A DNA stretch of 64,000 bases from Actinomycetes bacterium (GTDB lineage Bacteria > Actinomycetota > Acidimicrobiia > Spongiisociales > ZC4RG35). The notes under the pieces were generated by a model that was not told where the DNA came from, searched no databases, and worked only from the letters and a program-made list of their open reading frames with translations. Positions 2,997 to 26,819 of this stretch are shown piece by piece. A program made the position numbers and the translations under genes. Location: contig QGUS02000003.1 of assembly GCA_003242515.2 (NCBI GenBank), forward strand, positions 12,647-76,646, given 5' to 3'. Every line of letters starts with the position of its first letter. The stretch's first letter is position 1.

Positions 2997-3881
2997 ATGC
3001 GGATACTCCCCCGGCCGTTCGGGCTGATCGTCGCCGACGCCATGGCCGTCCTCGGCCGCACCTGGAAGACCCTCGTCCCGGTCTCCATCGCCGTGTTCGT
3101 GCCAGCGGCGCTGGCGTCCTGGGCGGCCTACTCCATCCCGGGGGCACTCGAGTTCGTGGAGGCCATCCTCCTCGAGCCGGAGACCCTGGCCGGTCTCCCC
3201 GCCGCGGAGTTCTGGGAGCGGGCCCGGCCGTTCGTCACCGCCGCGGTGGTCACGATGGTCGTGCAGCTCCTCGCGTCCGTCCTCGTGTTCCTCTTCTGCC
3301 ACCGCGTCGTGATCGCGTCGGTCCGGGAACAGCCCACCGGCCGGGCCTCCCTGCAGAGGGTGCTCCGCCGCTACCCCGTCGCCGCCGCGGCCACCGTCCT
3401 GTCCGCGGCCGCCGCGTTCGGTCTCTTCCTGATCGGGTACACGGTGTGGAGCATCCCGGCGACCATCGTCGCCTTCCCCAACCCCACCGCAGAGTTCGCC
3501 GGCACCGTCCTCCTCTTCGCCTTCACCGGCCCGGGGATCTGGCTGGCCGTGTCCATGTCGATGGTGACCCCGGTCGCCTCCGTGGAGGAGAAGGGGGTCT
3601 TCGCCTCGATCCGACGCAGCGCCGCCCTGGTCAGGGGCCGTTGGTGGGCCACCCTGGGGTTCCTGCTGGTGGTGGCGATGCTCGGGATCATCGCCGTGAA
3701 CCTGATCCAGCTGGTGGCCATCCCCGTCACCGCGGCCGGTGGCGGCGGCGCCACCCCGATCGCCTCGCTGCTCGGCGTCCTGGCCCAGGGACCGATCGTG
3801 GCGGCGATGGGCGTGATGTTCACCAGCTGGTACCTGGACCTGCGGGCCCGCAAGGAAGTGCTGCTGGTCGCTCAGCTCTGA
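2997..3881 (+). CDS. Polytopic membrane protein of unknown function
   Basis: ATG at 2997 lies in frame within ORF 2625..3881. There are several hydrophobic helices (LVPVSIAVFVPAALASWAAY, LGFLLVVAMLGIIAVNLIQLVAI). The upstream part of the ORF is antisense shadow of mutM. Confidence 0.6.
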   Translation: MRILPRPFGLIVADAMAVLGRTWKTLVPVSIAVFVPAALASWAAYSIPGALEFVEAILLEPETLAGLPAAEFWERARPFVTAAVVTMVVQLLASVLVFLFCHRVVIASVREQPTGRASLQRVLRRYPVAAAATVLSAAAAFGLFLIGYTVWSIPATIVAFPNPTAEFAGTVLLFAFTGPGIWLAVSMSMVTPVASVEEKGVFASIRRSAALVRGRWWATLGFLLVVAMLGIIAVNLIQLVAIPVTAAGGGGATPIASLLGVLAQGPIVAAMGVMFTSWYLDLRARKEVLLVAQL

Positions 3882-16151: not shown

Positions 16152-16192
16152 TCCCCTGTGATCCGGGACGGCGGGTGGTCTCCCGGCGCCGA

Positions 16193-16975
16193 TCAGTCCG
16201 CGGGACCGGCGGCGATGGCGTGGAACCCGCCGTCGACGTGGACGATCTCGCCCGTCGTCATCGGCGCCCAGTCGCTCAGCAGCACGCAGTTCATCATCGC
16301 CACGGGCGTCGGGTCGGAGGTGTCCCACCTGAGCGGGGCACGCTCCGCCCACACCTCGTCGAAGCGCTCGAACCCGGGGATCGCCTTGGCGGCCACGGTG
16401 CCCAGCGGGCCGGCCGACACCAGGTTCACCCGGATGTTGTGCTTGCCCAGGTCCCGGGCGAGGTAGCGGGTGACGCTCTGCAGCGCCGACTTGGCCACGC
16501 CCATCCAGTCGTAGGCGGGCCAGGCCTGGCGGTTATCGAAGTCCATCGCCACCAGCGCACCTCCCCCGGCCTCGATCATCAGCGGCATCAGCGCCACGGC
16601 CAGGGTCTTGTAGGAGTAGGCGGAGGTGACGAACGCGGTCTGCGCCGACTCGACGGGCGTGTCGAGGAAGTTCCCGCCGAGGGCATCGCCCGGGGCGTAG
16701 GCGATGGCGTGCAGGGCGCCGTCCACGGCACCCCACCGCTTCCGCAGGTCGTCGACGACGGCCTCGACGTGCTCGGGGTCGTTGATGTCCAGCTCGAGGA
16801 CGTCGGGCGGGTTCGGCAGTCGCTGCGCCGAACGCTCCGTCAGCCGCATGCTCCGGCCGAAGCCGGTGAGGACGATCTCCGCGCCCTGCTCCTGGGCGAT
16901 GCGCGCCGTGTGGAAGGCGATCGAGTCGTCCGTGAGGACGCCGGTGATGAGCAGGCGCTTGCCCTGGAGGAGCAT
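16193..16975 (-). CDS. fabI: Enoyl-ACP reductase (NADH), FabI/InhA type
   Basis: MLLQGKRLLITGVLTDDSIAF... with a FabI/InhA-like SDR core. 260 aa. Confidence 0.85.
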   Translation of the reverse strand: MLLQGKRLLITGVLTDDSIAFHTARIAQEQGAEIVLTGFGRSMRLTERSAQRLPNPPDVLELDINDPEHVEAVVDDLRKRWGAVDGALHAIAYAPGDALGGNFLDTPVESAQTAFVTSAYSYKTLAVALMPLMIEAGGGALVAMDFDNRQAWPAYDWMGVAKSALQSVTRYLARDLGKHNIRVNLVSAGPLGTVAAKAIPGFERFDEVWAERAPLRWDTSDPTPVAMMNCVLLSDWAPMTTGEIVHVDGGFHAIAAGPAD

Positions 16976-17346
16976 CAGAAGCTCTCCCCGAAGGTCATGA
17001 TCCCCCGGATGGCCAGCCCCATGCAGAACAGGAGGAGCAGGCCGAAGTAGAGGGTGGGGCGCTTCCGGAACTGCGCCCGATAGATGTAGGTGAAGGCCAT
17101 GGCGAAGGCGATCACCACGCCGTAGAAGACGTGCTGGTTGCCCGGGTTGATCCCCTGGATCGACATGGCGCCGACTCCGAGCAGCACCTGGACCAGGAGC
17201 CCGGCGACGGCGACACCGACCGCCCAGTAGAAGGCCTTCGGCGGGGTCTGCTTGCGAGCCATGAGTACGCCCCAGAGACCGACTACCCCGCTGATGCCTG
17301 CTGCGATCGGTCCCCAGGCTTGATGGATGGTGCCCACGATCGGCAT
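16975..17346 (-). CDS. Small integral membrane protein (4 predicted helices)
   Basis: ATG at 17346 (MPIVGTIHQAWGPIAAGISGVV...). Its stop overlaps the fabI start. The upstream part of track ORF 16975..18015 is off-frame shadow. Confidence 0.55.
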   Translation of the reverse strand: MPIVGTIHQAWGPIAAGISGVVGLWGVLMARKQTPPKAFYWAVGVAVAGLLVQVLLGVGAMSIQGINPGNQHVFYGVVIAFAMAFTYIYRAQFRKRPTLYFGLLLLFCMGLAIRGIMTFGESF

Positions 17347-17419: not shown

Positions 17420-18706
17420 GTGAGACGCGTCGCGGCGCTCGTCGTCCTCCTCGCCGCCTGCTCCGGAGCCGGCCCCGTCACCACGGGCACGACCGCGCCA
17501 CCGGCGGCGCCGACCACCACCGCCGCACCGGGGACCACCACCACGACCGGCCCCGCCGAGCTGGGCCCCGTCGTCTTCGCCTTCCTCGGCCCCGACGGGC
17601 TCGTCCTCGGCGATGGGGAGGTCCTGCTCCCCGGGCCCATCGAGGGCCGGCACGCCCTGGCGCGGGACCACGCGGGTGGTGTCGCGTACCTGGCCGAAGG
17701 CGTCCTCTGGTGGCTCCCTGCGGGCGCCACCGAGCCCAGCGAGGTGGGCGCCGCCCCTGGGGACGCCCTGGTCGAGGTGGTGCCGACGGATTCCGGTCCG
17801 GTGGCGCGGCTCGGCGTCTGCCCGTCCCGGTTCGTCTCCCTGGCCGACGGCTCGGAGGTCGCAGAGCCCGATCGGGTTGCAGTCGAGGTCGACTGCGGCG
17901 ACCCGGCCCTCGACCGGGCCACCCGGCGGGCCGCCAATGGCCTGGCCGTCGAGATCGCCGGGCCCGACAGCGACGGCCTCCCCCAGACGCTCGAGGTCAC
18001 GCAGGACGGCGCCATCGTCGTCTCGATCCCGGTCGGCGGCTTCTACGAGGACCGGGCACGCATCCACGACTTCGACGGGCGCGCCGTGATCGTCTCCAGG
18101 GGCACCGCCGACCAGCACGTGCCGGAGACCTTCTTCGTCATCGACCTGGCGTCCGGCGACCTGGTGCGCTGGAGCGAGGGCGTCCACACCCAGGCCGCTC
18201 TGCTGACGCCGGACGTCACGACGGTCCCCCCTGTCCCGGAAGAAGTGGTCCACGCCGTCTACAGGGGGACCCCTCTCCGCACCGACGACCTGATCGCATC
18301 CCTCGAAGACGGGGTCTACGCCGGGTACGTCGACTATGCCGCCACCTCGGGCCTCACCGGAGGGCCGGAGATCCATCTCGACCTGATCGTCTGGTTCATG
18401 GGCCGGGAAGCCGGGTACGCCGCCACCGAGGACGGCGAGGAGTGGCCACCCGGCGACTTCTACGTCCGCAACGAAGACCCGACCCAGATCGTGCTGCCGG
18501 TGTCACCCGACGTCGAGGTCACCTCGGTCTGGTTCCACTACGACGCGACGCAGCAGCTCGAGAACCGGCCGATCACCTATGAGGAGTTCGTCACGGCAAT
18601 GACCGGTGAGCCCGTCGGGGCGGAGATGAACATGCTCTCCGACCCCTGGTGGGTCACCGTCCGGGACGGCCGGGTCGTCGCCATCCACGAGCAGTACGTG
18701 CCCTAG
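17420..18706 (+). CDS. Secreted lipoprotein of unknown function
   Basis: GTG start. Signal peptide with lipobox VLLAAC, then a Thr/Pro-rich linker and a globular region of about 380 aa. Confidence 0.7.
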   Translation: MRRVAALVVLLAACSGAGPVTTGTTAPPAAPTTTAAPGTTTTTGPAELGPVVFAFLGPDGLVLGDGEVLLPGPIEGRHALARDHAGGVAYLAEGVLWWLPAGATEPSEVGAAPGDALVEVVPTDSGPVARLGVCPSRFVSLADGSEVAEPDRVAVEVDCGDPALDRATRRAANGLAVEIAGPDSDGLPQTLEVTQDGAIVVSIPVGGFYEDRARIHDFDGRAVIVSRGTADQHVPETFFVIDLASGDLVRWSEGVHTQAALLTPDVTTVPPVPEEVVHAVYRGTPLRTDDLIASLEDGVYAGYVDYAATSGLTGGPEIHLDLIVWFMGREAGYAATEDGEEWPPGDFYVRNEDPTQIVLPVSPDVEVTSVWFHYDATQQLENRPITYEEFVTAMTGEPVGAEMNMLSDPWWVTVRDGRVVAIHEQYVP

Positions 18707-18831: not shown

Positions 18832-20439
18832 TCAGGCCTGGTCGAGGAGGAGGTCGGCGTACTGGTCGCGCACGACCTTCTTGTCGAACTTCCCGGTGCC
18901 GGTCTTCGGAATGGCCTCGATGAAGACGATCCTGTCCGGGAGCCACCAGGAGGCGACCCGACCTTCGAGGTGCTTGCGGAGCTCCTCCTCGGTGACCTCG
19001 CCCTTCCTGACCACGAAGGCCACCGGGCGCTCCTGCCACTTCGGGTGCTTGAGGCCGACCACCGTGGCCTCGGCCACGGCCGGATGGGCCATCAGCTCGT
19101 TCTCCAGGTCCAGCGAGGAGATCCACTCGCCACCGGACTTGATCACGTCCTTGGCCCGGTCGGTGATCCGGATGTAGCCCTCCGGGGTGATCTTGCAGAC
19201 GTCACCCGTGCGCATCCAACCGTCGACGAACGACTGGGCGGAGCGGTCGTCCTTGTAGTACTCACCGGCGATCCACGGGCCGCGGATCAGCAGCTCGCCG
19301 AACGCCTCGCCGTCGTGCGGGAGCTCCTCTCCCACCTCGTCGACGATCTTCACCTGCAGGCCGAAGACCGGGATGCCGGCCGTCTCGAGACGATCGAGCT
19401 GGTCCTCCAGCGGCCAGTCCTCCATGTGCGGCTTGAGCACGGCGACCGACGCGACCGGATTGGTCTCGGTCATGCCCCATCCCTGGATGATCCGGATCCC
19501 CTGAGCCTTCCAGAACCACTCGATCAGGGCCCGGGGGACGGCGGAGCCGCCGCACAGGAAGGCCCGGATCGACGACAGCCTGACATCGGGGTTCGCCTCC
19601 AGGTACTGCTTGATCCCCAGCCAGACCGTGGGGACACCGGCGCTGAAGGTCACGTTCTCCTCGGTGAACAGCTTCACCAGCCCCTGCGGCGAGAGGTCCG
19701 GTCCCGGGTAGGTGAGCTTGACGCCCCGGGTCACCGCCATGAACGGGTAGCCCCAGGCGGCGGCGTGGAACATCGGGACGACGGGCAGGACGTTGTCCGT
19801 CGGCTCGATGGGGAAGTTCGCCATGTTGTGGACGGTGTGGAGGTAGGTCGACCGCTGGGTGTATGCGACGCCCTTGGGGTTCCCCGTGGTGCCCGACGAG
19901 TAGCAGAGCATCATCGGCGACCGCTCGTCGAGCATCGGCCACTGCCCGTGCTCGGGCTGGTCGGCGATCAGGTCCTCGTAGGCGATGGAGCCGGGCAGGT
20001 CGTCGGATGCCTCCGGGCCCATGACCACCCAGTGCTTCACCGTCTCCATCTTCGAGGCGATCGGGGCGAGCAGCGGGACCAGGTCGGGGTCGACGAACAT
20101 CGCCTCGTCACCGGCGTGGTTGGCGACGTAGACGATCTGGTCGGCGAAGAGGCGGATGTTGATGGTGTGGCAGATCCGTCCGGTGTTGGCCGTCGCCCAG
20201 TAGAGCTCGTGGTGGCGGATGTTGTTCCAGGCGAAGGTACCCACTGCGGCGCCGCGCTCCAGGCCGAGGGCGTCGAACGCCGACGCGAGCCTGCGGACGC
20301 GATGGTCCGTCTCGGCGTAGGTGGTGCGGGTGATGGAGCGGTCGGCCTCGACCGACACGATCTCGGCGTCGGGGTGGATCCACACCGCGTGGTCGTAGAG
20401 CGTGGAGAGCAGGAGCGGGAAATCCATCATGTGGGGCAT
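18832..20439 (-). CDS. Long/medium-chain fatty-acid--CoA ligase (AMP-dependent synthetase)
   Basis: YSSGTTGNPKGV AMP-binding motif. 535 aa. GGGAGGA lies 5 nt upstream of the ATG. Confidence 0.85.
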   Translation of the reverse strand: MPHMMDFPLLLSTLYDHAVWIHPDAEIVSVEADRSITRTTYAETDHRVRRLASAFDALGLERGAAVGTFAWNNIRHHELYWATANTGRICHTINIRLFADQIVYVANHAGDEAMFVDPDLVPLLAPIASKMETVKHWVVMGPEASDDLPGSIAYEDLIADQPEHGQWPMLDERSPMMLCYSSGTTGNPKGVAYTQRSTYLHTVHNMANFPIEPTDNVLPVVPMFHAAAWGYPFMAVTRGVKLTYPGPDLSPQGLVKLFTEENVTFSAGVPTVWLGIKQYLEANPDVRLSSIRAFLCGGSAVPRALIEWFWKAQGIRIIQGWGMTETNPVASVAVLKPHMEDWPLEDQLDRLETAGIPVFGLQVKIVDEVGEELPHDGEAFGELLIRGPWIAGEYYKDDRSAQSFVDGWMRTGDVCKITPEGYIRITDRAKDVIKSGGEWISSLDLENELMAHPAVAEATVVGLKHPKWQERPVAFVVRKGEVTEEELRKHLEGRVASWWLPDRIVFIEAIPKTGTGKFDKKVVRDQYADLLLDQA

Positions 20440-20789
20440 CGAATCCTCCCTGCTGGTCGAAGACGCGCGGGAGGTTACGCGAGCAACCGGCGGGGTGGCC
20501 TGCCGACCGGCATCTTTTCCGCACCGCCCCCCATGCGCATCGGTGCCGCTCCGGCGGCAACTTCATCCGGACCGTCGGCCGCATCCGTCCTCCACGGAGT
20601 CGGGCCTTCCGGAGAGCTCCCGGGCTCCCCGTTCCCGGCGCTCCCCCTCCGCCCGGAAACGGGGGTCCGCTCGGAGCGCTGCTCCCCTGCCGACTTCGCC
20701 GCCACGCGTCGGGGGCACGACGAGGCGGCTCACGACCTGGTGGGAACCACCCCCGGCCCGTGGGGACGGAGGGCGGCTCCCGCGGAACG

Positions 20790-21128
20790 AGGGAGAAAAG
20801 AGAAACCCCGAGGGAGCCTCGGCCGAAGCCTCAACCCTCTCGGGGCTCTCTTGCCGCGCTTCGTCGGGCCGGGGACCCGAATCCGAGCGGACTCTCTTGC
20901 CACCGGCCGAAGCCGACGGCGGGTGCGGCCCGAGGGCCGCCGTTCCCGTTGCCGGGAACTGGTACAGGCCCGAAGGCCTGTTGCCGTTCGTCGGTGACGA
21001 TCCCGAAGGATCCCCGCCGAGCGATCGGCCATCCGAACGCTGCGGGCCGAAGCCCGGCTGCGATTCGGGAAACCTTCACGGACGGTCTCCCGCCCGATCC
21101 GGTGTCTCCGGGTTTCCCCTTCGACGTG
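20790..21128 (-). ncRNA. Candidate structured RNA, unit 2 (about 340 nt), minus strand
   Basis: Bounded by the promoter-like hexamers at 21163-21135 and the terminator-like repeat at 20850-20795. It contains hairpins with UUCG (5 copies including the repeat) and GCAA loops when read on the minus strand. Ends and strand are inferred, not measured. Confidence 0.3.
20795..20850 (-). repeat. 56-nt repeat copy A, terminator-like on the minus strand
   Basis: 54 of 56 nt identical to 21305-21360. Minus strand reads CCCCGAGAGGG..GGCUUCGGCC..CCCUCGGGG followed by UUUCUCUUUUCUCCC. Confidence 0.6.
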
Positions 21129-21134
21129 ACCGGA

Positions 21135-21163
21135 AAGTTACGCCACCAGGTGGGGTGGCACAA
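21135..21163 (-). promoter_or_regulatory. Sigma70-like promoter candidate for unit 2 (TTGTGC-17 nt-TAACTT on the minus strand)
   Basis: The hexamers sit at exactly the same offsets (331 bp shift) as the stronger promoter candidate of unit 1. Confidence 0.3.
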
Positions 21164-21180
21164 GCGGATTCGGCACTTGT

Positions 21181-21208
21181 TTTTCGCGAGCTGCGAGGAG
21201 TTTTCGCG
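21181..21208. promoter_or_regulatory. Pair of TTTTCGCG boxes, 20-bp centre spacing (module 2)
   Basis: TTTTCGCG at 21181-21188 and 21201-21208. The pair ends 17 nt upstream (minus-strand sense) of the -35 candidate. Confidence 0.35.
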
Positions 21209-21302
21209 CTCTGTGTACTCGAAGAACAGCACGAGACCTCTCGCGGCCCGGCGGGAGCCACCCCCACATCTCCACACGCTTCGCTTGGGGAAGGGCAGGG
21301 TG

Positions 21303-21459
21303 CGGAAATGAGAAACCCCGAGGGAGCCTCGGCCGAAGCCTCAGCCCTCTCGGGGCTCTCGGTGTCGTCTCTCCCGGGGAAAGCGGGCCCCCCGTTCGAG
21401 GCGACTGGTCTCCGGGGCCGAAGCCCCTTCGACGGTGACCGGGGCGAACCCCGTTCACG
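21303..21459 (-). ncRNA. Candidate structured small RNA, unit 1 (about 155 nt), minus strand
   Basis: Runs from just downstream of the TATGTT -10 (21471-21466) to the U-tract after repeat copy B. It has a 5' hairpin GUGAACGGGG-UUCG-CCCCGGUCAC, a long hairpin capped by GGGGC-UUCG-GCCCC, and a terminator hairpin. Confidence 0.35.
21305..21360 (-). repeat. 56-nt repeat copy B, terminator-like on the minus strand
   Basis: 54 of 56 nt identical to 20795-20850. On the minus strand it is followed by UUUCUCAUUUCC. Confidence 0.6.
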
Positions 21460-21465
21460 GCACGA

Positions 21466-21494
21466 AACATATGGGTCCCCTCCCGAGCCGTCAA
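21466..21494 (-). promoter_or_regulatory. Sigma70-like promoter candidate for unit 1 (TTGACG-17 nt-TATGTT on the minus strand)
   Basis: The reverse complement of 21489-21494 is TTGACG and that of 21466-21471 is TATGTT. The spacer is exactly 17 nt. Confidence 0.4.
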
Positions 21495-21511
21495 CCGGGA
21501 CCGCTCGCGAC

Positions 21512-21539
21512 TTTTCGCGGCTTGTCACGAATTTTCGCG
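21512..21539. promoter_or_regulatory. Pair of TTTTCGCG boxes, 20-bp centre spacing (module 1)
   Basis: TTTTCGCG at 21512-21519 and 21532-21539. Both are exactly 331 bp from the module 2 boxes, and 17 nt from the -35 candidate. Confidence 0.35.
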
Positions 21540-21565
21540 ACCGGTTTCTGTCCCACCCCCTACCT

Positions 21566-22384
21566 ATGATCGCCACCATGACCGCGACCGCGGCACAGGC
21601 CGTCCCGCTGCGACTCGAGAACCTCTCGCCCAGCCGGGCCGGCGACTTCAAGACCTGCCCCCAGCTCTTCAAGTTCCGGGCCATCGATCGCATCCCCGAG
21701 CCCGTGACCATCCATCAGGCGCGGGGCACCACGGCGCACCTTGCGCTGCAGCGTCTCTTCGACCTCCCCCGCACCAACCGCACCCCGGACACCCTGTTCG
21801 ACCTCTTCAGGCAGGCGTGGACCGAGATCCGGGGCGACGAGGAGTTCACCGGGCTCTTCCCGTCGGTCGAGGAGGAGCGCGCCTGGGGGATCGAGTCCCT
21901 CGGCCTCCTCGCCAACTACTTCGCCATCGAGGACCCGGCCACCTTCGAGCCGGTCGCCCGCGAGCTGGACATGACCGAGCAATTGGGCGACATAGTGATC
22001 CGGGGGATCCTCGACCGGATGGACCGCCGGCCCGACGGGGCGCTGGTGATCACCGACTACAAGACCGGCAAGGCGCCACCCGAGTCGTACGCCCTCCCCG
22101 CCTTCTTCGCCCTCAAGATCTACGCCCTGCTCATCCGGAACCGTCTCGGCGAGACCCCGGCGGAGTTGCGGCTCCTCTACCTGAACGGGCCGACCATGTA
22201 CACGCTGCCCGTCGACGACCGGCAGCTCGACGGCATGGAGAGCCAGCTGCGCGCCCTGTGGTCGGCCATCGACCGGGCGCTGGCCTCGGGCAACTTCCCG
22301 CCCCGGCCGGGGACCCTGTGCAACTGGTGCTCCTACCGGGACATGTGCCCGGCCTGGGTCGAGCCCCCGACCGAGTCGGTCTAG
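21566..22384 (+). CDS. PD-(D/E)XK nuclease, RecB-family exonuclease / Cas4-like with Fe-S cysteines
   Basis: ATG at 21566 (MIATMTATAAQ...). FKTCPQLFKF, GILDRMD, VITDYKTGK (D..D/ExK core) and C-terminal CNWCSYRDMCPAW. Codon usage changes sharply to high GC3 at this ATG. Confidence 0.8.
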   Translation: MIATMTATAAQAVPLRLENLSPSRAGDFKTCPQLFKFRAIDRIPEPVTIHQARGTTAHLALQRLFDLPRTNRTPDTLFDLFRQAWTEIRGDEEFTGLFPSVEEERAWGIESLGLLANYFAIEDPATFEPVARELDMTEQLGDIVIRGILDRMDRRPDGALVITDYKTGKAPPESYALPAFFALKIYALLIRNRLGETPAELRLLYLNGPTMYTLPVDDRQLDGMESQLRALWSAIDRALASGNFPPRPGTLCNWCSYRDMCPAWVEPPTESV

Positions 22385-23754: not shown

Positions 23755-23877
23755 ATGAACCAGAACTTCGACACCGAGAAGGTGTTCGCCGACCCGGCGG
23801 CGTGGCTCGCCCGCTTCGGCATCGCCGCCGAGGTCGTGGAGACCCTCGCCGAGCAGCCGCTGGCGGAGGCCGCCTGA
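23755..23877 (+). CDS. Small acidic protein (40 aa) upstream of adnA
   Basis: MNQNFDTEKVFADPAAWLARFGIAAEVVETLAEQPLAEAA. By hand count every third codon position is G/C, matching real genes. It ends 17 nt before the adnA GTG. Confidence 0.45.
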   Translation: MNQNFDTEKVFADPAAWLARFGIAAEVVETLAEQPLAEAA

Positions 23878-23894
23878 CCCCTACGATCGGTTCC

Positions 23895-26819
23895 GTGGCG
23901 GAGTCACGGATCGGTCCCGACGAATGGCAGTCCGCGATCGAGCGGACCGACGGCCGTCAGCTGGTCGTCGCCGGCCCGGGCACCGGCAAGACCGAATTCA
24001 TCGCACGCCGGGTCGAGCACCTGGTCTCGTCGGGCAAGGCGCGCCGCGACGCGATCGCCGTCCTCTGCTTCTCGCGCCGGGCGGCCGGTTACCTGACCGA
24101 CCGCATAGCCGACCTGGTCGGGGCGACCGGGCATCCGATCACGGTCACCACCTTCCACTCCCTCGCCCTCTCCATCATGGAGGCGGCCCGGGACGGCGAG
24201 CCCCCGACCGTCCTCACCACACCAGAGCAGATCGACTTCGTGAGGCGGGTCCTCGCCGACGAGGACCCTGAGGACTGGCCCATCGTCTTCAGGGGCATCC
24301 TCGGGACCCGTCCGTTCGCCGTCGAGGTCGCCGACTTCGTGATGCGTTGCTCGGAGCGTCTCCTCACCCCCGAGGACCTCCAGTCGATGGCGGAGCAGCG
24401 GGCCGACTGGCGGGCCATGCCCGGCTTCTACCGCCGCTATCTGGACCGGCTGCGCCAGGCAGGGCGGACCGACTACGGGGTCCTCCTCGCCGACGTGGTG
24501 GGGATCCTCGCCTCGGGGCACGAGACGCCCTTCCGCTACGTCCTGGTCGACGAGTACCAGGACACCACCCCCGCCCAGGCGGAGATGGCCCGGCTGCTCG
24601 CGGAGCCGCACGGCAACCTCACCGTCGCAGGCGACCCCTACCAGTCGATCTACTCGTTCCGGGGCGCCGAGCTCTCCAACATCGCCGCATTCGCCGACGC
24701 GGAGCGGATCGTCCTCGCCGAGAGCTTCCGGGTGCCGCAGGCGATCATGGAGGCGGCCCTGCGCGTCGTGTCCGGAGCCGACCTGCCCGGCGCCGCCGGC
24801 CCGGTGGTCCCGGCACCGCACCAGGGCAGCGCCGAGGCCTACGTCTTCGACCAGGAGACCGCGGAGGCCGAGTGGATCGCCGACCAGGTGGAGAAGGCGA
24901 TCGTCGTCGACGGCGTCCCGGCCTCCCGCATCGCCATCCTCCTCCGCACCAAGAGGGAGCTCGCCGCCGAGCTGTCCCGGGCCCTGGACCGCCGCGGCAT
25001 CCCCCACGACCCGCCCCGGTCCCGCCTCGTCGACCACCCGGCGGTCAGCCTGGTACGGGACATCGTGACTGCCTCCGTGCACGGCGGTCCGCTTCCCACC
25101 ACCGACGCCTCCGACGCGGCGGAAGCCGACCGGGCCATGCGCCGCGTCCTCCTCGGGCCGGTCTTCGGGCTCGACCTCTCCACCGAACGCGCCCTGATGC
25201 GCGCCCGGCGGAGGACCTGGGAGCCGTGGCACCACATCGTCGCCGAGCGTCTGCCCCACCTTCCGGGGCTCGCCTCCCTCCTCGCCGACCCCTCGTGGGC
25301 CACCACCCGGCCGGCAGCCGAGGGCTTCTGGCACCTCTGGTCGACCGTCGAGGGGGTCGACCGGATCGTCGCCGACCCGGAGCGCGCCGACTGGCGGAGG
25401 GCATGGAGGTCGTTCGCCCAGACGCTGGCGCGACAGTCCGAGCGGGACCCGTCCGTGACGCTGCATCACTACTTCGTCCTCACCGAGGACGAGGACTTCG
25501 AGGCCCAGCCGATGCTCCCTGCCCACCTCCCCTCGGAGCGGGTCACCCTGACCACCCTCCACCAGGCCAAGGGCCTCGAGTTCGACATCGTCTTCATCGC
25601 CAACGCCGTCGAAGGCGTGTTCCCCGACCTCCGCCGCAGCCGCCGGCTGCTCCGGCCGGAGCTCCTGGAGCCCTCCCGTCTCACCGACATGGAGGCCCAG
25701 GGCACGTTCCATCTCCAGGAGGAGACCCGCCTCGCCTACACCGCGATGACCAGGGCGAGGTCCCGGGTCGTGTGGACCGCCACCCGGGCGGCCGACGATC
25801 TCGGCGAACGCCGGCCCTCGAGGTTCCTCGTGGCCGCATCCGGCGGGTCCGCCGACCTGGGTCCGCCCGACGACGCCGAGACCGAGCCCGTCACGGTCGT
25901 CGGCATGGAGCGTGTCCTCCGCCGGCACCTCCTCGACCCGGCTGCGCCCGCCGCGGTCCGGCTCGGGGCGGTGAGGGTGCTGGTCCGGCATGCCGAGGGC
26001 CGGTGGAACCCGATGCGGTTCGCCGGGGTCCCCGAGCGCGGGCCGTCGTCGCCGATCCTCCCCGAGTTCTTCCGGCTCTCCCCGAGCCAGGCGGAGTCCT
26101 TCCGCGACTGCCCCCGCAGGTACGCGCTGGAACGGCGCCTCCAGCTCACCGACTCGGACAACGACTACGCCCAATCGGGCTCGCTGGTCCACAAGGCCTG
26201 CGAGCTGGCCGAGACCGAGATCGTCGGCACCGGCGAGATCCACGCCCCCCTCAAGCGCGTGCTCGAGATCCTCGACGAGGTCTGGGAGGAGGAGGCCGAC
26301 TTCGGTGGCCACACCAGGAACCGCGCCTTCCTGAAGCGTGCCCGGGAGATCGTGACCACGCTCTACACCCTCTGGCCGAGCAACGGGACCCCGGTCGCCC
26401 TCGAGAAGCCCATCCGCATCGAGATCGGCGGGGTCACCTGGAGGGGCCTGGTCGACCGCGTCGAGAGGACCGACGCGGGGCTCAAGGTGGTCGACCTCAA
26501 GACGGGAACGAAGCCGCCTTCCCACGAAGAGGCGGCACGCTCGCTGCAGCTCGCCTTCTACGTCCTGGCACTCCAGGAGGAAGGAGAGGACGTGACCGCG
26601 GCCGAGCTCTGGTACCCGGCCGCGAGGTACAAGGCGAGCATCGCGGTGAGGAGGCTGGACATGTCGGCCGTGCCCGAGATCCGCCAGGAGCTCGAGGGGC
26701 TCGTGACCGAGCTCAGGGCGGAGAGGTGGGAGGCCCGGGTGTCCGCAGCGTGCGAGCACTGCGCCTTCAAGTCCTCATGCCCCCAGTGGCCCGACGGCAA
26801 GGAGGCCTACCTCCCGTGA
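23895..26819 (+). CDS. adnA: UvrD-like helicase + RecB-like nuclease subunit (AdnA-like)
   Basis: GTG at 23895. VVAGPGTGKTEF Walker A, VDEYQDT motif II. C-terminal nuclease VVDLKTG plus the cysteine set FRDCPRRY...CEHCAFKSSCPQW. Confidence 0.8.
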   Translation: MAESRIGPDEWQSAIERTDGRQLVVAGPGTGKTEFIARRVEHLVSSGKARRDAIAVLCFSRRAAGYLTDRIADLVGATGHPITVTTFHSLALSIMEAARDGEPPTVLTTPEQIDFVRRVLADEDPEDWPIVFRGILGTRPFAVEVADFVMRCSERLLTPEDLQSMAEQRADWRAMPGFYRRYLDRLRQAGRTDYGVLLADVVGILASGHETPFRYVLVDEYQDTTPAQAEMARLLAEPHGNLTVAGDPYQSIYSFRGAELSNIAAFADAERIVLAESFRVPQAIMEAALRVVSGADLPGAAGPVVPAPHQGSAEAYVFDQETAEAEWIADQVEKAIVVDGVPASRIAILLRTKRELAAELSRALDRRGIPHDPPRSRLVDHPAVSLVRDIVTASVHGGPLPTTDASDAAEADRAMRRVLLGPVFGLDLSTERALMRARRRTWEPWHHIVAERLPHLPGLASLLADPSWATTRPAAEGFWHLWSTVEGVDRIVADPERADWRRAWRSFAQTLARQSERDPSVTLHHYFVLTEDEDFEAQPMLPAHLPSERVTLTTLHQAKGLEFDIVFIANAVEGVFPDLRRSRRLLRPELLEPSRLTDMEAQGTFHLQEETRLAYTAMTRARSRVVWTATRAADDLGERRPSRFLVAASGGSADLGPPDDAETEPVTVVGMERVLRRHLLDPAAPAAVRLGAVRVLVRHAEGRWNPMRFAGVPERGPSSPILPEFFRLSPSQAESFRDCPRRYALERRLQLTDSDNDYAQSGSLVHKACELAETEIVGTGEIHAPLKRVLEILDEVWEEEADFGGHTRNRAFLKRAREIVTTLYTLWPSNGTPVALEKPIRIEIGGVTWRGLVDRVERTDAGLKVVDLKTGTKPPSHEEAARSLQLAFYVLALQEEGEDVTAAELWYPAARYKASIAVRRLDMSAVPEIRQELEGLVTELRAERWEARVSAACEHCAFKSSCPQWPDGKEAYLP

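Follow-up and report, generated by a model that had tools for sequence, protein, structure and literature searches.

A hairpin cluster in an Acidimicrobiia contig probably marks two adjacent, paralogous minus-strand genes for structured non-coding RNAs

Introduction

Tandem paralogous small RNAs are exemplified by OmrA/OmrB of E. coli, PrrF1/PrrF2 of Pseudomonas, and AbcR1/AbcR2 of rhizobia. Other bacterial small RNAs consist of a row of stable hairpins, such as Scr5239 from Streptomyces with five stem-loops in ~159 nt, and C-rich loops of Gram-positive small RNAs pair with G-rich mRNA sites. Soil, freshwater, and marine habitats harbor abundant Actinomycetota of the class Acidimicrobiia, most of them uncultured. 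We know of no described non-coding RNA that is specific to this class; to our knowledge, Hfq and ProQ are not known in Actinomycetota, and CsrA is not typical of the phylum. A further RNA, Ms1, is ~300 nt long, shares its locus with a HAD-IB hydrolase/phosphoserine phosphatase gene and an oxidoreductase gene, and was found by Infernal/Rfam only near mycobacteria, according to its authors (PMC9130861). Here, we analyze a stretch of 64,000 nucleotides (henceforth termed the window) from contig QGUS02000003.1 of an Acidimicrobiia genome, in which an earlier note, made from the letters alone, had singled out a cluster of tetraloop hairpins and proposed that it encodes a functional minus-strand RNA. 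We consider it highly probable that this cluster represents two adjacent, independently transcribed, paralogous genes for structured non-coding RNAs, here named RNA-A and RNA-B, both read from the minus strand.

Results

A cluster of hairpins in one orientation

An exact-stem scan for stem-CGAA-stem and stem-TTCG-stem hairpins across the whole window recovered all eight hairpins listed for the cluster by the earlier note:

20821-20830, stem-CGAA-stem hairpin, 3 bp
20904-20915, stem-CGAA-stem hairpin, 4 bp
20964-20981, stem-CGAA-stem hairpin, 7 bp
20999-21012, stem-CGAA-stem hairpin, 5 bp
21043-21056, stem-CGAA-stem hairpin, 5 bp
21331-21340, stem-CGAA-stem hairpin, 3 bp
21414-21427, stem-CGAA-stem hairpin, 5 bp
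21440-21453, stem-CGAA-stem hairpin, 5 bp

Seven of them carry, on the minus strand, the C(UUCG)G loop that had been ascribed to all eight, and the hairpin at 21440-21453 reads G(UUCG)C; an additional TTGC hairpin (GCAA on the minus strand) is present at 20943-20958, as described. The cluster sits in a 1.13-kb non-coding gap (20440-21565), which holds 8 of the 17 stem-CGAA-stem hairpins of the 64 kb, among them 5 of the 6 whose stems have at least 5 bp. No TTCG-orientation hairpin was found in the gap by the same scan, and the hexamer CCGAAG occurs there seven times versus none for CTTCGG. Hairpin density amounts to ~7 per kb in the gap vs 0.14 (CGAA) and 0.08 (TTCG) per kb elsewhere in the window, i.e., CGAA hairpins are ~50 times denser than the background. 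The G+C content of the window is 70.6%. Base composition does not account for the cluster: 2000 dinucleotide shuffles of the gap gave a mean of 0.22 hairpins and a maximum of 3, and none reached 8. Enrichment and single orientation thus hold against a background taken at the scale of the window.

Two predicted RNA genes with a common promoter layout

On the minus strand, the gap contains two units, each with a sigma-70-type promoter, two CGCGAAAA boxes 20 bp apart upstream of it, and a 3' hairpin termed P4. The CGCGAAAA octamer occurs four times in the 64 kb, where 0.59 copies are expected, and all four lie at the two promoters. Homologous loci were used to fold both units, and a covariance model, R1, was built from 27 B-type sequences. 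For RNA-B, the features are as follows:

21532..21539, minus strand, distal CGCGAAAA box, from the octamer count and related loci
21512..21519, minus strand, proximal CGCGAAAA box, whose start is 20 bp from that of the distal box; the -35 element follows 17 nt downstream
21466..21494, minus strand, core promoter TTGACG, 17-nt spacer, TATGTT, from motif scan and homologues
21304..21459, minus strand, RNA-B, ~150 nt with four hairpins P1-P4, matched by R1 with 123.7 bits (E 3.9e-24)
21435..21458, minus strand, P1, cap G(UUCG)C here and a GNRA loop in most homologues
21408..21433, minus strand, P2, GUC-GAA-GGGGC(UUCG)GCCCC-GGA-GAC, UUCG in 21 of 27 homologues
21364..21405 (core 21378-21392), minus strand, P3, GGCCCGCUUU as an invariant loop (26 of 27 identical) on a covarying stem
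21310..21360, minus strand, P4, GAGAGCCCCGAGAGGGCUGAGGC(UUCG)GCCGAGGCUCCCUCGGGGUUUCUC, 51 nt, terminator-like site, putative terminator and conserved handle

The RNA-B promoter is the sole promoter-like site returned by a motif scan of 20300-21700 (0.0 expected in shuffles), and the arrangement TTGACG-N17-TACNTT is conserved in RNA-B homologues. From this promoter we infer the 5' end of RNA-B, and from P4 its 3' end. RNAalifold yields four local hairpins, P1-P4, in which 21 of 45 pairs have changed on both sides. With this structure held fixed, 94.9% of alignment cells are paired; shuffles average 10.9 pairs with both-side changes, 0 of 500 reach 21, and all five measures of the structure lie above every one of the 500. 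Sliding the 3' partners by 1-3 columns lowers pairing to 34-65%. Both arms of P4 are almost unchanged among the sequences; 11 of the 20 pairs show no variation at all. Minimal RNA-B variants of 92-93 nt retain P3 and P4 alone, and variants of 171 nt carry one extra capped hairpin.

RNA-A lies downstream of RNA-B on the same strand and comprises a longer chain of hairpins:

21201..21208, minus strand, distal CGCGAAAA box, from the octamer count
21181..21188, minus strand, proximal box CGCGAAAAACAA, conserved in homologues
21135..21163, minus strand, core promoter TTGTGC, 17-nt spacer, TAACTT, below the scan threshold and read by eye
20794..21128, minus strand, RNA-A, ~330 nt, chain of ~ten local hairpins (minimum free energy z -5.3)
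21104..21125, minus strand, P1, GUC-GAA-GGG(GAAA)CCC-GGA-GAC, conserved 5' module CACGYCGAAGGGGAAACCC
21039..21061, minus strand, h3, C(UUCG)G, containing 21043-21056, in the 5' region of variable module number
20996..21016, minus strand, central hairpin CGGGGAUCC(UUCG)GGAUCGUC, stem sequence invariant in 25 of 25
20964..20981, minus strand, h5, 7-bp stem with UUCG here, strongly covarying
20943..20958, minus strand, h6, GNRA-capped, GCAA here and GAGA or GAAA elsewhere
20900..20922, minus strand, h8, CCGCCGUCGGC(UUCG)GCCGGUGG, UUCG in 21 of 25, covarying stem
20854..20890, minus strand, penultimate hairpin, counterpart of RNA-B P3, with the invariant loop UCCCCGG at 20869-20875 (24 of 25)
20800..20850, minus strand, P4, 51 nt, putative terminator, from motif scan, direct repeat, and folding

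Its homologues have promoters of the form CTTGTGC-N17-(GGTC)TACTTT and range in length from 287 to 475 nt. Since the count of GNRA-capped modules in the 5' half differs among them, the full-length alignment contains many gaps. In the 3' half, the alignment is good and yields local hairpins only, with compensatory change in 23 of 59 pairs. Among these are the compensations GUUGGG/CCCGAC, GUCGGG/CCCGGC, and GUCCGG/CCGGAC in the stem of the UCCCCGG hairpin. Near-invariant elements are the central hairpin, of which GGGGAUCC-loop-GGAUCGUC is identical in 25 of 25 sequences, the UCCCCGG loop, and P4. RNAalifold on the full-length alignment also proposed a long-range pairing of the central hairpin with the UCCCCGG hairpin, which was not adopted because both partners are invariant and the local hairpins have covariation support.

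The loop of h5 reads GCAA (9), UCAC (5), UUCG (3), or GAGA (3) in homologues. Since one and the same hairpin bears UUCG, GCAA, GAGA, or UCAC across genomes, the idea that the UUCG loops themselves are the functional signal does not stand.

Both RNAs are read from the minus strand

The functional strand is supported as minus by six independent lines of evidence: promoter and terminator motifs, folding energies, an excess of G.U pairs, a loop census, R1 scores, and the lack of coding signal. In 20300-21700, the motif scan found promoter-like and terminator-like sites on the minus strand only. RNA-A folds with -202.5 kcal/mol (z -5.3) on the minus vs -182.3 (z -3.4) on the plus strand, and RNA-B with -87.9 (z -3.1) vs -78.8 (z -1.4); the two P4 hairpins likewise give -32.6 and -35.1 vs -23.8 and -27.5. 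In the covariation-supported helices of RNA-B, G.U cells outnumber A.C cells 198 to 13. A census of loops in 172 distinct homologous units counted 490 UNCG and GNRA loops in sense vs 31 in antisense for A-type units, and 153 vs 3 for B-type units. R1 scores RNA-B and RNA-A at 123.7 and 76.9 bits on the minus strand vs 27.7 and 20 bits on the plus strand. The sixth line concerns coding potential, for which the genes on either side of the gap provide the reference:

18832-20439, minus strand, long-chain fatty-acid-CoA ligase gene with its own GGGAGG Shine-Dalgarno sequence, one flank of the gap
21566-22384, plus strand, PD-(D/E)XK nuclease gene, 272 amino acids (aa), the other flank

Every one of the six frames of the gap has a G+C content at third codon positions (GC3) of 0.67-0.72, vs 0.95-0.96 in both flanking genes, and by this test none of the six shows codon bias.

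All six lines agree with the minus-strand product that had been proposed. What changes is the number of products: the hairpins mark the strand correctly and belong to two separate RNA genes instead of one. Two hairpins that read better on the plus strand had been recorded as counter-evidence, and neither retains this weight. The GAAA hairpin at 20651-20666 lies outside both RNAs, in a poorly conserved spacer, and the GCGA hairpin at 21017-21030 is a palindrome specific to the window and absent in homologues, located within the basal stem of the conserved central minus-strand hairpin of RNA-A.

A shared core and variable capped hairpins

The P4 regions of RNA-A and RNA-B form a 56-nt direct repeat with 96% identity. 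Each P4 is a ~20-pair stem in 51 nt (-32.6 kcal/mol in RNA-A, -35.1 in RNA-B), followed by UUUCUC; the motif scan flagged it as terminator-like, and the UUUCUC tail can pair with an upstream GAGAG. R1, when run on RNA-A, matches 20794-20955 end to end with 76.9 bits (E 1.6e-14). Because the 3' 160 nt of RNA-A thereby align with RNA-B over its full length, RNA-A can be described as a B-like core with a 5' extension, and because R1 aligns the two, the UCCCCGG hairpin corresponds to P3 of RNA-B. By these alignments, RNA-A and RNA-B are paralogues of one family.

Across homologues, the number of capped hairpins varies from 0 to ~12, their caps interchange between UUCG and GNRA, and purine-rich symmetric internal loops recur (e.g., GAA/GGA and GGAA/GGAA). 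Since caps swap, numbers vary, and minimal RNA-B keeps just P3 and P4, we regard the capped hairpins as accessory. The conserved functional core is accordingly the loop of the P3-type hairpin (GGCCCGCUUU in RNA-B, UCCCCGG in RNA-A) together with P4.

A separate resemblance concerns two hairpins: RNA-A P1 (21104-21125, GUCGAAGGGGAAACCCGGAGAC) is closely similar to RNA-B P2 (21408-21433, GUCGAAGGGGCUUCGGCCCCGGAGAC) here and in one related locus, L001. As RNA-A P1 and RNA-B P2 differ in other genomes, this similarity suggests lineage-specific gene conversion between the two.

The RNAs occupy a conserved locus as independent units

Protein-anchored retrieval gave the 80 best related loci, nearly all of which are titled as Acidimicrobiia or Acidimicrobiaceae metagenome-assembled genomes; the few other taxon labels look like binning errors. 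R1 finds 142 matches at E<=1e-6 in 75 of these 80 loci, usually two per locus, and 72 show the dual CGCGAAAA box pattern. A further 63 metagenome contigs were found by the P4 motif itself, which removes the bias of anchoring on the nuclease. Where the flank in these contigs suffices, gene order is ligase, A, B, divergent nuclease, and glutamate dehydrogenase (GDH). In 195 of 206 P4 matches, a box and then TTGNNN-N16-19-TANNNT are located upstream. Related loci and metagenome contigs combined, this looks like a single conserved locus, and the RNA family appears to be confined to Acidimicrobiia as far as sampled. The flanking nuclease is only ~70% identical among genomes in which P4 and the RNA-A central hairpin stay invariant.

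P4 occurs twice in the window and one to three times per locus, was found only at this locus in 143 contigs, and had no match in viral contigs by motif scan; it therefore does not appear to be a generic repeat. These counts bear on the view that there is no gene here and that the region consists of repeated palindromic or terminator elements, is a by-product of composition, or codes for protein in open reading frame (ORF) 20402-22384. A plus-strand frame of 660 codons, in phase with the nuclease gene, does run through the entire gap without a stop, and the two P4 copies do form a 96% direct repeat. However, GC3 in the upstream 1.16 kb of this ORF is 0.69 vs 0.96 in the nuclease gene proper, which marks the upstream part as spurious; shuffles never approach eight hairpins; P4 has the restricted occurrence just described; and compensatory changes keep the RNA helices. 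By GC3, shuffles, and covariation, the absence of a gene is effectively refuted.

A and B can be considered independent units because unrelated genes split them, B inverts, and each has its own boxes and promoter. Between B and A, some genomes hold a gene that reads as a membrane protein, one that reads as a methyltransferase, or a small gene on the opposite strand. A gene of 201 aa, read as bPH/SHOCT-type, is inserted between A and the ligase gene in several loci, and in some loci the B-type copy is inverted. This independence also weighs on the alternative of a long 5' leader that acts in cis, through two attenuators, to control the fatty-acid-CoA ligase gene. A, B, and the ligase gene do share a strand, practically all contigs with sufficient flank have the ligase gene downstream of A, and the weak tail after P4 makes read-through plausible. 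A leader is nevertheless difficult to reconcile with a distance between A and the ligase gene that varies from ~110 to ~1100 nt, a separate codon-biased gene between the two in at least three loci examined, unrelated genes on either strand between B and A, a full promoter at each RNA, and a poorly conserved spacer (20440-20799) ahead of a ligase gene with its own Shine-Dalgarno sequence. Intervening genes, variable spacing, and a separate promoter per RNA thus render the cis-leader improbable.

Several arrangements in related loci are recorded here in their own right. Small unrelated genes interrupt the locus between B and A in L008, L005, L019, and L073, and between B and the nuclease gene in L082, L090, and L099; across lineages, P4 and promoter junctions look like permissive or preferred insertion points. 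In L043, L051, L060, L063, L071, L072, L074, and L080, one RNA copy shares the strand of the nuclease gene, which points to a local inversion. L047 contains three P4 motifs. Short tandem repeats lie directly 3' of the putative B-type terminator in two divergent loci (L027 ~3640-3700 and L059 ~3470-3560, minus-strand reading) and consist of GACGGAA, ~5 times, and a G/T-rich sequence like GTTTTGGG.

Neither RNA matches a known family

A search of the whole window with Rfam 15 at gathering score gave no match, and permissive searches (20300-21700 at E<=10; seven homologous loci at E<=5) returned only junk, i.e., Transposase-2 at E 0.84 and microRNA models. A literature text search for RNA motif strings likewise gave no match. 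Individual families were considered and rejected. 6S RNA (RF00013) has no model match, and the covariation-supported structure contains no long rod with a central bubble. For Ms1, there is no Rfam model match either, the hairpins are local instead of forming a rod with a bubble, and synteny differs. 6C RNA (RF01066) has no model match, with one C-rich loop (UCCCCGG) in RNA-A and none such in RNA-B. In place of the many GGA loops of a CsrB/RsmZ-type sponge, the loop census shows interchangeable UUCG/GNRA caps.

RNA-A and RNA-B could in principle be a highly diverged 6S, Ms1, or 6C beyond the reach of the Rfam models. The reported detection of Ms1 by Infernal/Rfam just near mycobacteria (PMC9130861) leaves room for this idea, as do the size of RNA-A, at ~300-400 nt like Ms1, and its C-rich loop, like that of 6C. 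Against it stand the absence of any credible Rfam 15 match under permissive cutoffs (E<=10 for 20300-21700, E<=5 for the seven homologous loci), covariation in support of a local hairpin chain and not of the 6S/Ms1 rod with central bubble, and the missing Ms1 synteny of HAD-IB hydrolase and oxidoreductase; no HAD domain was found among ORFs scanned at 7.8-26.8 and 29.7-33 kb. We judge such a relationship very improbable.

Flanking genes

The distal CGCGAAAA box of RNA-B ends just 27 nt from the nuclease start codon, a gap that is similarly short in most homologous loci. The gap being so short, the divergent nuclease promoter must overlap the RNA-B box region, and the two genes may be co-regulated or oppositely regulated. 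By similarity, the nuclease comes closest to nuclease domains in the mycobacterial AdnAB structures 6ppu and 7sjr; this resemblance to AdnAB-type DNA-repair nuclease domains gives no link to the RNA. At 23802-26819 (+) and downstream, an AdnA/AdnB-type UvrD-helicase and PD-(D/E)XK nuclease fusion adjoins the GDH gene. Through ORF 20402-22384, an automatic gene caller could wrongly extend the nuclease gene over both RNA genes.

On the other side, the spacer between the putative RNA-A terminator and the ligase gene (20440-20799) is 360 nt long, G+C-rich, and poorly conserved, with few related loci aligning; its equivalent in several of them is the 201-aa gene, read as a bPH/SHOCT-like membrane protein. 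Two further ORFs, 16175-17050 (+) and 17420-18706 (+), encode products of 291 and 428 aa for which Pfam and NCBIfam gave no match. Linkage of these ORFs to the RNAs was considered and rejected, as they are kept in just 8-16 of 143 loci, many with little flank. A search for tRNA and tmRNA genes found none.

Discussion

The sequence features suggest how the two genes might operate. A near-consensus housekeeping-type promoter would drive each RNA, and the paired CGCGAAAA direct repeats at ~-60 and ~-80 form a candidate binding site for a dedicated activator. P4 might combine an intrinsic terminator with a 3' stability or recognition element, and the UUCG/GNRA-capped hairpins most likely nucleate folding and protect against nucleases. 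The RNAs could then act in trans as regulatory small RNAs, their invariant loops pairing with G-rich mRNA sites.

This base-pairing role is our tentative preference. An invariant loop on a covarying stem beside a 3' terminator is the arrangement classically seen in small RNAs, the shortest variants consist of exactly the P3 loop and P4, and the RNA-A loop is C-rich, as in other Gram-positive small RNAs. Both units are intergenic, possess their own promoter and terminator-like site in a promoter layout conserved in homologues, and present a conserved accessible seed on covarying stems (GGCCCGCUUU, 26/27; UCCCCGG, 24/25). Several observations count against the overall account of the two genes and their role. 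The 5' and 3' ends of RNA-A and RNA-B are predictions, and termination efficiency is uncertain since the UUUCUC tail is short and pairs with the upstream GAGAG. P4 and the RNA-A central hairpin are frozen on both arms almost without covariation, which is unusual, and which a protein or tertiary contact would fit at least as well. For a small RNA that acts by base pairing, RNA-A is large, with up to 475 nt in homologues and ~four GNRA loops in each molecule. Finally, complements of the loops in the window and ~1 Mb of loci (~9 kb per genome) occur at chance level and at no conserved position.

The same features lend themselves to a different reading, in which both genes are real and the RNAs bind protein in a sequestering or scaffold role like CsrB/RsmZ, 6S, Ms1, or GlmY, with P4 and the invariant hairpins as protein sites and the 5' modules as extra binding or spacer units. 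Such a role would account for P4 and the RNA-A central hairpin remaining invariant on both arms next to a nuclease of only ~70% identity, for a number of 5' modules that varies by duplication, for the recurring purine-rich symmetric internal loops (GAA/GGA, GGAA/GGAA), and for the length of RNA-A with its ~four GNRA loops. It is less readily squared with the locus, which has no linked candidate for a partner protein and whose uncharacterized neighbouring ORFs are not conserved along with it, or with repeated loops that are generic UUCG/GNRA caps varying by genome instead of a specific repeated motif; minimal RNA-B variants, moreover, hold just one invariant loop. Protein binding thus seems nearly as likely as base pairing in trans, and is likewise only a possibility.

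A broader proposal, which we regard as conceivable but doubtful, is that RNA-A and RNA-B are the RNA parts of an Acidimicrobiia-specific ribonucleoprotein or RNA-based regulatory system of a new functional class. P4 and the GGGGAUCC...GGAUCGUC hairpin would then serve as handles for sequence-specific protein binding, the long form with its many GNRA loops would adopt a defined tertiary architecture, and a dedicated transcription factor would act via the CGCGAAAA-N12-CGCGAAAA site. If true, the class would rank beside 6S, Ms1, and raiA RNAs instead of adding one more base-pairing small RNA. Should the invariance of both P4 arms reflect a protein partner, it would point to a new RNA-protein system in Actinomycetota.

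The RNA family is apparently undescribed and widely conserved in sampled Acidimicrobiia. It is well defined by two paralogues, a supported secondary structure, invariant loops, and a private promoter motif, and is ready for an Rfam-style entry. The locus also provides a worked example of how orientation-biased UUCG/GNRA tetraloops and an excess of G.U over A.C reveal the strand of an RNA gene from raw DNA.

Comparison with described systems places the RNAs between several architectures. With CsrB/RsmZ and GlmY/GlmZ, they share a varying number of hairpin modules and a common architecture among paralogous RNAs, but RNA-A and RNA-B lack a repeated specific loop motif and carry generic, varying UUCG/GNRA caps instead. 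They resemble Ms1 and 6S as possibly abundant structured Actinomycetota RNAs that are poorly detected by Rfam, with RNA-A similar to Ms1 in size, yet differ in being strings of local hairpins with ligase and nuclease flanks and no covariance-model match. Like Scr5239 and 6C, they are small RNAs of high-GC Gram-positives formed by a row of stable hairpins, with conserved nucleotides concentrated in a hairpin loop that is C-rich (UCCCCGG) in RNA-A. Unlike them, they have no Rfam 6C match, the RNA-B loop GGCCCGCUUU has no plain C-run, and their distribution is limited to Acidimicrobiia as sampled. In build, multi-hairpin actinobacterial small RNAs such as Scr5239 appear nearest.

In organization, the nearest analogues appear to be the tandem paralogous small RNAs such as OmrA/OmrB and PrrF1/PrrF2. 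As in these systems and AbcR1/AbcR2, two homologous genes follow one another head to tail within a single intergenic region; each has its own promoter, the same upstream motif, and a terminator of its own, putative in the case of A and B, and the paralogues share their ends while differing in the middle or 5' part. RNA-A and RNA-B are set apart by the lack of any sequence relation, by phylum, by the length of RNA-A (up to 475 nt in homologues), and by a 3' hairpin that is the most conserved part.

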